64,000 nucleotides of DNA from assembly GCA_964016885.1 (NCBI GenBank), contig OZ024741.1, positions 133,610,001 to 133,674,000 on the forward strand, given 5' to 3'. Origin of the DNA: Eledone cirrhosa (lineage: Eukaryota). A model generated the notes under the pieces. The model was not told where the DNA came from. It did not search any database and worked only from the letters and a program-made list of their open reading frames with translations. Of this stretch, positions 3,013-34,582 are shown one piece after another. Position 1 is the first letter of the stretch. The number at the start of each line of letters is the position of its first letter. A program made the translations under genes and the position numbers.

Positions 3013-3077
3013 CTATTGCTTTAGCCGGAATGTACCCAATATTTCCAAAAAGAGCGAGAGCTGCTACATATTTCGGT
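3013..3077 (-). CDS. PHM-like gene, exon (K)PKYVAALALFGNIGYIPAKAI(G)
   Basis: Acceptor ttattgcag and donor gtaaga; 65 nt, phase 2->1. Aligns with the start of the PHM C-terminal domain. Further exons presumably lie left of the window. Confidence 0.8.
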
Positions 3078-3289
3078 CTGCAATAATAACAAACACTTTC
3101 ATAGAAAAAGCTTACCCATTTATAGGAACCAATCATTTGAATTAACACAAGTGTATGACTGGTATTGTTTTTTTTTTTTATAAACCCAAAGTGATGAAGT
3201 GAAAAGTCAACAGCGGATGTGTTGTAACTCAACACAGGTCAGAATTAATTATTGGTTTTTAATTTAGGCACAAGGCCAGCAATTTGGAG

Positions 3290-3545
3290 GAGTAACACTG
3301 AACCGCTTGTGAGTCTTTCATTCATCTTGTTCAGTTCTTGCAATGATCAGTTCAACATGTCAAATTTTAGCATTAGAATTGGCACAGCCAAAGTGTTATT
3401 GGCAATATGCTTGTTGTACGCTGAGAGTGCTCACGATCACATTATTTTACTTTCCTGAGATATTCATTCTTGGTCTTCTGCTTATGTATGGGTCCATCAT
3501 GTCTGACATTCTCCTCTCGTCCAAGATATCTATAATGGTCCCCTG
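3290..3545 (-). pseudogene. Dong/R4-like non-LTR retrotransposon RT C-terminal relic
   Basis: Translates to YRYLG...EYLRKVK...NTLAVPIL with stops and frameshifts. Confidence 0.5.
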
Positions 3546-29900: not shown

Positions 29901-32900
29901 TTAGACAATTCGTCAGTTTTATAATTTCACTTATGAGGGTGGGGTGAAAAGTTCATAGGCTGACTATGAAGGAATGATGCTAGGGCTGTAAAATCTTGAA
30001 TGCATTAAATTCAACTTCTTATTAATAACTGTATCGTTTCTTTCCAGGGACTATGCTAAAAACAAACCTCATTTGGTCATTCAATGAGACTATTTTGGTC
30101 AGCCTATGAACATTTCAGTAGAACTCATATTAAATAGGAAAAGAGAAAAAAATATTAAATAATGAAATGAGGAGCAGACTCTACATTCCCGGTTAGGTAT
30201 ACATCAGCTGCATCCAGTAGACGATATGGTGAAAACATTGCCGCAAAGAACAACCAATGACACCCGCTGCATCAACCACTCCACCTCACGGAGATCCATT
30301 CCTAAGCCAGATGAACTCCCAATTTATAAATACTGCTTTAAGCAAATCGATACAAATAAATAAATTAATAAATAATAAAAACTTACGCCATCCCATTTCT
30401 GGTTTGGGATTAAAATTTCTTTAAACTCAGATGTCACCGCTGAAGCTGAAGACAGCAACACACAGAACGAAATAAGTAAAGCACACATGCTTAGCGTTCT
30501 CTCGACTCAACATAAATTTTGGCCTTTATATATATAAAAATATTCACACACATACACCACACGCATCAACTAATCTCTGTATAACTTTCTATGTATGTAT
30601 TTTCAATTGTTTGTGTACAAACATCAACACATACACGCACACATAAAGGCACGCGCACATACACACACACACACACACACACCCACATACATATATATAT
30701 ATATATACTGTATATATATATATCATATACATATATTTACACACCCACCCGTATGATTATTTATGTATATTTACACACCCGTTTGCTTATTTATGAATAA
30801 CAACAAGATTAAAACTGAATAACTCAGACAGAAATAAATAAATAAAAAAAAACACGTGAAGAAAGAAATAGATTCCGTACCAATAAGTAATGAATAAATG
30901 AATAAAATGTTAAAGATAAAAAGAGAGGAAAAAATAGAGAAATAGAGGGGTACTGAAATAAAGAAAAAGGAAACAGAAATATATATATATGGTAATAGGG
31001 TTGGTGCTCTGAAATAGCGATGTATATATGAATGTATGTATAGTATATTTGGCAATATACCGTATGATTAATTAAAAACATTTAGAAGACCATACGCTAT
31101 AAGTTTTAAAGTAGTGACTATGTCATTTACTTCTTTTTTTCGGTAAAAGAATGGAGAGAAGCTAACAGAGTCTGTTTCACACTGTTGGTGATCATCAGAG
31201 CAACGTACTTTGCCGAAAATCATAGAAGCTGGATTCTTATAGAATTCCAGTAATAATCAGGAGATGATTATACAAAGCGAATGCCGGTCCAGAAAAAATT
31301 AGGTATTAGGATTGGTGCTGTCGGTGTCGAGTTTCTGACTCTTTCCATATTACCCAGTATACTACCCTAAGTATTGAGTACTCTGGTGCGTTATGGTCCA
31401 CCTGGTATCTTACCACACCCTATTTGTTATATATATATATATATATATATATATATATATATATATATATATATATATATATATATATATATGTATATAT
31501 TACAAAGGAATTGTGGTAAGGAACCAGATAGACCATAACGCACCTGAGTACTCAATACTTGGGTTAGTAGAGTGGGAAATAGGAAAAAGTAGGAGTCCAG
31601 AAATAGTCGCCGAAACGGCTTGAGCTCTGCCGTCAGGGTCATACTTTTTCCTATATATATATATATATATATATATATATATATATATATATATATATAT
31701 ATATATATATATATATATGTATATATATATAAACGGAAAAAATGAAACGAAATTTCATTTCCCACTCTTAGGACGGCTCTTACTTAAATATAAGTATGTA
31801 CACGTACATACATATATGTATACAGACGTACAGTAGTATGTATATATATATATATACATACATGCACACATATATATATATGTACGTCTGGATTCACGAA
31901 CATTTATTATAATGCTCGGTGTGTTTGTAAACAAATATCCAGTATTAAGCCGCAGTGTCCAGCAACCATCGTTGCTCGTTTGTTCAACACTGACAAAGGA
32001 ACGCTGTACTAGTTTCAAGCTTATCAGCTATCGTCAGCAACGTATACCTTCCTGCCAGATTGTCGAACGTATATACTTACCTTATGCATATTAACAGCTG
32101 AGAAGCCCAATTTGCATATCGAGTGGGTTATATGCAAATTGGGCTTCTCAGCTGTTAATATGCATAAGGTAAGTATATACGTTCAACAATCTGGCAGGAA
32201 GGTATACGTTGCTGACGATAGCTAATAAGCTTGAAACTAGTACACATATACAGACGCACACACATATACAGACGCACATACACATACACACACACACACG
32301 AGCATTTACACAGATACAGAGACACACACACACAGTCACATCACACACAGATACAGACTGACACAAATACAGACACACACACACAGAACAAAACAATAAG
32401 TATGTTGTAACATGGTGTAATGTATTGCTGGAATTTTAGCTTCCATTTATACATCTTCCTCCGTTTCTTCAAACTTACTATAACAAATAAATATATCAAC
32501 CCAACCCCACACAAATATATAGATTTTCACAGTATCTTTACCCCCAGCTTATTACCTGTACCCTTAGACAATTCGTCAGTTTTATAATTTCACTTATGAG
32601 GGTGGGGTGAAAAGTTCATAGGCTGACTATGAAGGAATGATGCTAGGGCTGTAAAATCTTGAATGCATTAAATTCAACTTCTTATTAATAACTGTATCGT
32701 TTCTTTCCAGGGACTATGCTAAAAACAAACCTCATTTGGTCATTCAATGAGACTATTTTGGTCAGCCTATGAACATTTCAGTAGAACTCATATTAAATAG
32801 GAAAAGAGAAAAAAATATTAAATAATGAAATGAGGAGCAGACTCTACATTCCCGGTTAGGTATACATCAGCTGCATCCAGTAGACGATATGGTGAAAACA

Positions 32901-34582
32901 TTGCCGCAAAGAACAACCAATGACACCCGCTGCATCAACCACTCCACCTCACGGAGATCCATTCCTAAGCCAGATGAACTCCCAATTTATAAATACTGCT
33001 TTAAGCAAATCGATACAAATAAATAAATTAATAAATAATAAAAACTTACGCCATCCCATTTCTGGTTTGGGATTAAAATTTCTTTAAACTCAGATGTCAC
33101 CGCTGAAGCTGAAGACAGCAACACACAGAACGAAATAAGTAAAGCACACATGCTTAGCGTTCTCTCGACTCAACATAAATTTTGGCCTTTATATATATAA
33201 AAATATTCACACACATACACCACACGCATCAACTAATCTCTGTATAACTTTCTATGTATGTATTTTCAATTGTTTGTGTACAAACATCAACACATACACG
33301 CACACATAAAGGCACGCGCACATACACACACACACACACACACCCACATACATATATATATATATATACTGTATATATATATATCATATACATATATTTA
33401 CACACCCACCCGTATGATTATTTATGTATATTTACACACCCGTTTGCTTATTTATGAATAACAACAAGATTAAAACTGAATAACTCAGACAGAAATAAAT
33501 AAATAAAAAAAAACACGTGAAGAAAGAAATAGATTCCGTACCAATAAGTAATGAATAAATGAATAAAATGTTAAAGATAAAAAGAGAGGAAAAAAATAGA
33601 GAAATAGAGGGGTACTGAAATAAAGAAAAAGGTAACAGAAATATATATATATATATGGTAATAGGATTGGTGCTCTGAAATAGCGATGTATATATGAATG
33701 TATGTATAGTATATTTGGCAATATACCGTATGATTAATTAAAAACATTTAGAAGACCATACGCTATAAGTTTTAAAGTAGTGACTATGTCATTTACTTCT
33801 TTTTTTCGGTAAAAGAATGGAGAGAAGCTAACAGAGTCTGTTTCACACAGTTGGTGATCATCAGAGCAACGTACTTTGCCGAAAATCATAGAAGCTGGAT
33901 TCTTATAGAATTCCAGTAATAATCAGGAAATGATTATACAAAGCGATTGCCGGTCCATCAAAAATTATGTATTAGGATTGGTGCTGTCAGCAGTCGAGTT
34001 TCTGACTCTTTCGATATTACCCACTATACTACCCTCTAAGTATTGAGTACTCTGGTGCGTTATGGTCCACCTGGTATCTTACCACACCCTATCTGTTATA
34101 TATATATATATATATATATATATATATATATATATATATATATATATATATATATATATATATATATATATATATATATATATATATATATATATAACAA
34201 AGGAATTGTGGTAAGGAACCAGATGGACCATAACGCACCAGAGTACTCAATACTTAGGGTAGTAGAGTGGGAAATAGGAAAAAGTAGGAGTCCAGAAATA
34301 GTCGCCGAAACGGCTTGAGCTCTGCCGTCAGGGTCATACTTTTTCCTATATATATATATATATATATATATATATATGAATGTATGTATCCGAACAGCTA
34401 GATCCGAAACAGTTCAGATCTAGCTGTCGAAACGGCTGGAGCTCAGCCGTCGGGGTCCTGACTCTTTTCATATATATATATATATATATATATATATATA
34501 TATATATATATATATATATATATATATATTATAGATGAGATTCTACAGGACTAGAACTGTTTCATTCATTAGAAATCATCAG

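Follow-up and report, generated by a model that had tools for sequence, protein, structure and literature searches.

The 64,000-nucleotide stretch of Eledone cirrhosa DNA analyzed here, which we call the window (C2:133610001-133674000, where C2 is contig OZ024741.1), carries on its minus strand the first seven exons of a divergent relative of peptidylglycine α-hydroxylating monooxygenase (PHM), hereafter gene A. A further 150 kb leftward was also examined, and five more exons lying 1.2 to 12.8 kb to the left of the window complete the gene. The resulting 12 exons form an unbroken frame of 335 codons (1008 nt), with no internal stop or frameshift. Octopus sinensis protein XP_036362534.1 matches all 12 exons in order (E values of 0.007 to 2.5e-32, within 264 kb), and since this is an independent database protein, the match is not a product of chance.

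Exons 1 to 7 run from 33151 to 3013 and join in frame through phase-compatible donors (six GT and one GC, the latter after exon 6) and AG acceptors at exons 2 to 7. Exon 1 (33050..33151, the most upstream of four copies) contains the ATG, a hydrophobic signal-like stretch, and the start of the N domain, and it ends at a GT donor in phase 0. Exon 2 (21330..21381) encodes Cys40 and Val38, the latter at the position of rat Tyr79. Exon 3 (7978..8065) encodes Cys71 and Arg64-His65 (CGT CAT, 8030-8025), which an ortholog aligned to rat PHM places at His107-His108. Exon 4 (6094..6188) carries Cys83, Cys90, and Ala101 at the conserved Trp141; exon 5 (5393..5464) carries Gln128 and His130 at Gln170 and His172; exon 6 (4932..4992) precedes a GC-AG intron; and exon 7 (3013..3077) covers the hinge and the start of the C domain. 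Intron 7 (1..3012) continues leftward out of the window. Beyond it, still on the minus strand, lie exon 8 (C2:133608710-133608790; His201 and His203 at rat 242 and 244, and Ser199 at Arg240), exon 9 (C2:133601410-133601486; Glu231 at Gln272), exon 10 (C2:133598919-133598972), exon 11 (C2:133598324-133598373; Met251 and Cys253), and exon 12 (C2:133597213-133597423; Met273 at rat Met314; Gln272, Asp275, and Ser277 at Glu313, Asn316, and Tyr318; stop codon). A preliminary description had recognized the seven in-frame exons and had placed the exons for the CuM copper site outside the window, both of which we confirmed. It had also set the first acceptor at 33108 and reported no signal-peptide exon in the window. 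Position 33108 in fact lies inside the signal peptide, which exon 1 encodes from the ATG at 33151 and of which the window holds four copies.

The most hydrophobic 15-mer of the gene A protein begins at residue 1 on hydropathy alone, and the product is predicted to be likely secreted. Its eight mature cysteines align, or nearly align, with those of canonical PHMs, and we assume that they pair as in PHM. The stop codon falls 70 codons into exon 12, with no PAL domain or membrane anchor following the PHM part, unlike in a bifunctional PAM; two orthologs are 334 amino acids long.

We found no alternative letter at the Arg codon CGT, hence no CAT, in contigs from three genomic DNA runs, which come from one sample that is possibly the assembly's own. 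The only exon 3 variant listed, at window position 7982 in two of the three runs, would change Ile to Val and is likely an allele. Three runs were listed for the last exon; all behaved as genomic DNA of one sample and none was an RNA run, a result with no bearing on expression. RNA editing was rejected as a rescue of His107: converting CGT to CAT requires G to A, and A-to-I editing is unable to restore the histidine, as had been argued earlier.

To describe the copper and substrate sites we use rat numbering, obtained by aligning an ortholog to rat PHM chains (full-length chain 5WM0 for positions 309-325); for the remaining gene A positions we rely on offsets that we take to be correct. The CuH triad is incomplete: His107 is replaced by Arg64, while His108 (His65) and His172 (His130) are kept. 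The CuM site is whole, with His201, His203, and Met273 corresponding to rat His242, His244, and Met314, and Gln170 is retained. The Arg-His pair, the Val at Tyr79, and the retained His172 agree with the preliminary description, which had left the CuM ligands to be inspected. Arg240 of rat PHM binds the substrate carboxylate and is, with Tyr318 and Asn316, one of three named substrate contacts (PMC12164859). All three differ in gene A: Arg240 is Ser199, so that the salt bridge residue is gone, Asn316 is Asp275, and Tyr318 is Ser277. Further changes are Tyr79 to Val, Trp141 to Ala, Tyr173 to Gly, Gln272 to Glu, and Glu313 to Gln. The loss of Arg240, which is also wider in the clade described below, is a more telling change than that of His107. 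The preliminary description had noted neither this loss nor the presence of the His107 substitution in a paralog and in orthologs of other species. His36 was rejected as a replacement ligand shared by the clade, with Lys present there in paralog B and in protein P0008. Separately, Met205 and Met251 (rat positions 246 and 291) are invariant in five genes of the cephalopod subclade and absent from the canonical pair of PHMs; they are possible extra Cu(I) contacts.

The Pfam scan and the folding were carried out on orthologs rather than on the whole gene A protein. Orthologs P0005 and P0006 contain PF01082 and PF03712 in tandem, both above the curated cut-offs, in keeping with the Cu2_monooxygen assignment of the preliminary description. 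The ortholog carries these two families only and has no DOMON domain which, with His107 also absent, sets it apart from DBH, TBH, and MOXD1. In the atlas, its nearest clusters are peptidylglycine monooxygenases (0.96). The P0006 model reached a pLDDT of 92.8 and a pTM of 0.90 with an 87-row alignment that held mostly canonical PHMs, a bias toward the PHM fold; a 3-row alignment gave a pLDDT of 39.5. The model consists of two beta-sandwich domains, and its top 25 entries were all PHM (E values of 8e-22 to 5e-17, with rat PHM at 8e-22); the match to DBH was weaker (E 1.9e-14, TM 0.60). The best TM-score, 0.77 (rmsd 3.0), was to the closed one-copper form 6ALA, other PHM entries scoring 0.64-0.74; in the absence of a control fold of a canonical PHM, this likeness is only a hint. 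Single exons used as queries gave no useful PDB or atlas match. Gene A is a member of the PHM-fold superfamily that descends from PHM, and it departs from PHM proper at His107, Arg240, Asn316, and Tyr318.

Gene A has a paralog, gene B, at C2:203.77-203.81 Mb, about 70 Mb away on the same contig. Gene B encodes 337 amino acids in 12 exons of the same phases, is 47.6% identical to gene A, and shares with it Arg107, Ser240, Glu272, Gln313, and Asp316. Over 300 codons, the two differ by a pS of 0.78, a value at which synonymous sites are saturated, and a pN of 0.33. For Ser240 one gene has AGT and the other TCG, codons of different families. The genome also contains two canonical PHM genes, one on C11 and one on C3; rebuilt over exons 2-12 only and with a shortened last exon, both keep His-His, Arg240, Gln272, Glu313, Asn316, and Tyr318. 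Gene A is 28-29% identical to them (E 1.6e-32 and 2.7e-29). All 10 internal exons agree in length modulo 3 among genes A, B, C11, and C3, and six of the 10 are equal in length in gene A and C11. Among genome searches with single exons or with the ortholog, five recovered both A and B and one recovered A alone, two weak matches (E 0.68 and 2.3) being taken as noise; the count of genes of this type is a lower bound. The small exons of gene A went unreported in genome-wide Pfam searches, even at an E value of 10.

Word-based protein searches with exon 4 plus its flanks (two candidates) and with exon 12 alone (five candidates) found no relative. With a profile made from the last exons of A and B, two of 66 candidates were found, CAI9727953.1 and O. 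sinensis XP_036362534.1, and the cluster of the latter includes Octopus bimaculoides XP_014770957.1. We take CAI9727953.1 to be an Octopus vulgaris protein; its model deviates at the start and around exons 10-11. These three Octopus orthologs are 59-65% identical to gene A, and all have Arg107 and Gly240. They keep Asn316 and have Asn at 318, compared with Ser240, Asp316, and Ser318 in gene A. The O. bimaculoides paralog combines Asn107 with Ser240. Since paralog B and the three Octopus orthologs have Arg107 and no Arg240, gene A is not a case of one-off decay.

We then searched the O. sinensis protein against 1.84 billion representatives. From 339 matches at an E value of 0.001, the best 150 were used, and names were obtained for 20 of the matched proteins; 163 proteins yielded 168 cut domains. 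A FastTree phylogeny contained 156 rows, fragments below 225 amino acids and seven near-copies or poor models being left out. From these, 42 rows were picked for an IQ-TREE mixture tree, which has only a midpoint root and several long branches. Gene A fell in a divergent mollusc clade with support of 99 (FastTree) and 100/99 (IQ-TREE), within a cephalopod subclade supported at 100 and 100/100, respectively. Among the 14 rows of the clade, those with names come from chiton (Liolophura), ark clam (Tegillarca, via a cluster member), scallop (Mizuhopecten), abalone (Haliotis), freshwater mussel (Potamilus), Mytilus, and Octopus, and in the IQ-TREE phylogeny the clade joins beside a Patella PHM and the group of C11. 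Counting near-copies, His108, His172, His242, and His244 are each present in 27 of 27 clade rows and Met314 in 26 of 26. His107 occurs in 11 of 27, the others having Arg (8), Leu (4), Lys (3), or Asn (1), and Arg240 occurs in 5 of 27. Outside the clade, 132 of 135 rows have His107 and 139 of 145 have Arg240. None of the nine rows of the cephalopod subclade has His107. On the best tree, the His107 state has to change four times, once outside the clade. A literature search over titles and the opening lines of abstracts, whose scope excluded subscription papers and supplements (possible expression tables), found no account of this clade or its ligand loss; the Octopus genes are already in databases under PHM-like names.

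Three Logan contigs (1076-1192 nt) encode whole 337-amino-acid Arg107 proteins, whose representative is 48% identical to A; because the gene has 11 introns here, they are likely spliced transcripts of a relative and not of gene A. Two proteins from Logan contigs, P0008 and P0158, are nearly identical, and three of their four differences lie at 313, 316, and 318 around the CuM methionine, a variation that appears concentrated in the substrate pocket. All four Haliotis proteins (P0021 and P0164-P0166) have Leu at 107 and His at Tyr79 and keep Arg240, a pattern suggesting that the third CuH ligand of abalone may have moved. P0017 (chiton) and P0013 have a His at the Phe112 position, next to an intact CuH triad. 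The first domain of P0019, a PAM with two PHM domains, has lost five of the six ligand positions, and His107 is likewise missing from P0114 and from the Sycon protein P0112.

Exon 1 lies in a tandem array (24311..34377) of units of about 2.66 kb, each of which spans exon 1, the DNA ahead of it with a TATA-like element, and a portion of intron 1. The three other copies of exon 1, at 30387..30488 (copy 2), 27720..27821 (copy 3), and 25131..25232 (copy 4, nearest exon 2), all on the minus strand, are identical in coding sequence. By self-BLAST the units are 96.6-99.1% alike, with 1-28 substitutions per 1.9 kb between copies. On the assembly and these small differences between copies, the array is a recent four-copy tandem duplication. 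The TATA-like element, located some 42 nt ahead of the ATG on the sequence of the first copy, is presumed to be functional. A strong-looking acceptor within the signal-peptide codons could join one exon 1 copy to the next out of frame, and the upstream copies may yield unproductive transcripts. Elsewhere in the window, transposon remains lie in or beside introns at 10204-12504 (minus strand), 14261-18712 (minus), 21490-22462 (minus), 45387-46365, 48926-49324, and 58301-59540; we take them to be LINE reverse transcriptase, Penelope-like, mariner-like, and helitron-like pieces. More distant members of the superfamily occur elsewhere in the genome, namely five or more DBH/MOXD-like genes clustered at C13:27.24-27.72 Mb (L002-L005, L007-L009, L011-L015, and L017-L021) and a TBH-like gene at C19:10.58 Mb, these labels being our presumption. 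In L018, from the C13 cluster, an in-frame stop immediately precedes the His-His motif.

The reading that we favor, at about even confidence, is that gene A likely encodes a secreted copper oxygenase repurposed from peptide amidation to another substrate, with five of the six copper ligands kept. The protein would be exported and loaded with copper. CuM (His201, His203, and Met273) would bind and activate oxygen, and His65 and His130, joined by water, would make up a two-histidine H site for a second, weaker copper, which would either transfer an electron or close onto CuM. The molecule oxidized would be one without a C-terminal glycine carboxylate, and the two canonical PHM genes would likely remain responsible for amidation. 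In evolutionary order, the carboxylate anchor would have been lost first with six ligands kept, after which His107 would have become dispensable, the other five ligands being unchanged in the rows examined. Loss of Arg240 is likely the older event because chiton and scallop members without it keep both histidines, and the altered substrate pocket shared by six-ligand members of the clade, chiton XP_064609811.1 and scallop XP_021371408.1 among them, suggests an active ancestor with a new substrate. Rat H107A reportedly binds two coppers in solution (PMC12164859), and in one crystal form the H-site copper is coordinated by His108, His172, and two water molecules (PMC6123673). It is therefore plausible that both sites of the gene A protein bind copper. 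More tentatively, we propose that molluscs carry an unrecognized family of PHM-derived secreted copper oxygenases with a new class of substrate, whose cephalopod members would be natural five-ligand enzymes turning over with a two-histidine H site.

Several points count against this proposal of a repurposed oxygenase. The same sources report that rat H107A retains at most about 5% activity (PMC12164859), that H-site mutants have kcat lowered more than 150-fold, and that in another crystal form the H site is empty (PMC6123673); the low activity and the empty site imply that a two-histidine site may not support turnover. Conserved ligands indicate likely copper binding, not catalysis. Among residues shared by the cephalopod genes, the alignment pointed to none as an evident substitute for His107, and because position 107 varies (Arg, Asn, Lys, Leu), Arg there would have no fixed role. 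Repeated loss of His107 is the reading of the best tree only, since a topology holding together all clade members without it was not rejected (p-AU 0.086), and long branches may inflate the wider clade.

A real, if clearly smaller, probability goes to a catalytically dead copper binder, in which the fold and one or two copper sites would be kept for copper transport, buffering, or sensing in secretions or hemolymph. The uniform absence of His107 from the cephalopod subclade and the near-inactivity of rat H-site mutants fit such a protein, as do the changes in gene A at Tyr79, Trp141, Tyr173, and Glu313, which are conserved in canonical PHMs; the best TM-score, to the closed one-copper 6ALA, adds weakly to this, for want of the canonical control fold. 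However, Gln170, His108, His172, and the full His-His-Met oxygen site have been kept across a saturated synonymous distance, and the pocket shared with six-ligand relatives points to an active ancestor. The preliminary description had suggested that the gene is a PHM paralog under maintenance whose amidating chemistry has been altered or lost, and the analysis supports this. Its further label of candidate pseudo-enzyme goes beyond the evidence, given that CuM and two CuH histidines are invariant in the clade and that rat H107A binds two coppers.

A PHM that still amidates, slowly or on special substrates, with Arg64 from the other domain replacing Arg240 as carboxylate anchor, is unlikely in our judgment. 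The PHM fold, the gene structure, and the intact CuM site would suit it, and of the 12 rows (near-copies included) with neither His107 nor Arg240, 11 have a basic residue, Arg or Lys, at 107. Yet all three named substrate contacts are changed in gene A, the O. bimaculoides paralog pairs Asn107 with Ser240, clade members that have His107 also lack Arg240, and the genome holds two canonical PHMs. We consider still less probable a one-copper oxidase or peroxygenase with CuM as its only working site, supplied by an external electron donor or by hydrogen peroxide, in which the H-site histidines would be structural. Such an enzyme would account for an intact CuM beside a CuH without one ligand, and in crystals of rat H-site mutants CuM is often the only copper present (PMC6123673), but the invariance of His108 and His172 in 27 of 27 rows probably exceeds what a purely structural role would usually need. 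Least probable is a decaying pseudogene or an assembly error at the Arg codon. The recent tandem array at exon 1 could disturb expression; nonetheless, the absence of any stop or frameshift in 12 exons, the same Arg in paralog B and three other species, and the agreement of the DNA contigs on CGT have already largely refuted it.

The clade implies that peptide amidation is probably not the function of some mollusc genes to which databases give the name PHM or PAM, and it points to undescribed copper chemistry in mollusc secretions. If five-ligand turnover proved true, the three-histidine CuH center, thought to be essential, would be dispensable, and these proteins would offer a direct test of whether PHM-type enzymes rely on long-range electron transfer or on closure to a binuclear site. 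What CuH does, and whether PHM follows an open or a closed mechanism, is actively debated (PMC12164859).

Among known systems, gene A is closest to PHM itself (the rat core, 1PHM and 1OPM, and monofunctional invertebrate PHMs), with which it shares the two-domain fold, PF01082 and PF03712 (in the ortholog), the CuM triad, His108, His172, Gln170, and the eight cysteines, as well as, with the canonical PHMs of its genome, the phases of the ten internal exons. It differs from PHM in having Arg at His107, in the changes at Arg240, Asn316, Tyr318, Tyr79, Gln272, and Glu313, and in a C-terminal tail of its own. The Octopus "PHM-like" proteins XP_036362534.1, XP_014770957.1, CAI9727953.1, and XP_052826668.1 are orthologs of A (59-65%) and B (63%) with the same five-ligand pattern; their names look automatic, saying PHM or PAM and omitting the missing residues. 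DBH/TBH and MOXD1, enzymes that act on non-peptide substrates, belong to the same superfamily, and the DBH/MOXD-like genes of this genome also lack Arg at the 240 position. In contrast to gene A (335 amino acids, no DOMON domain, and an ortholog model that matches DBH less well than PHM), the CuH site of those genes retains His-His. Burpitide cyclases, plant BURP-domain copper enzymes of unrelated fold, offer an analogy only, as a precedent for oxygen radical chemistry at two-histidine copper sites (PMC12164859). Finally, the engineered rat variants H107A (6ALV and 5WJA) and Q272E (8DSL, the top PDB sequence match of the ortholog by about 1 bit) resemble the natural gene A protein, which likewise lacks His107 and has Glu272. 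Those variants keep Arg240 and were made as enzyme probes, whereas the changes in gene A are old and common to several species; evolution has thus kept two changes that chemists designed, together with loss of the substrate anchor, and provides ready-made test cases.

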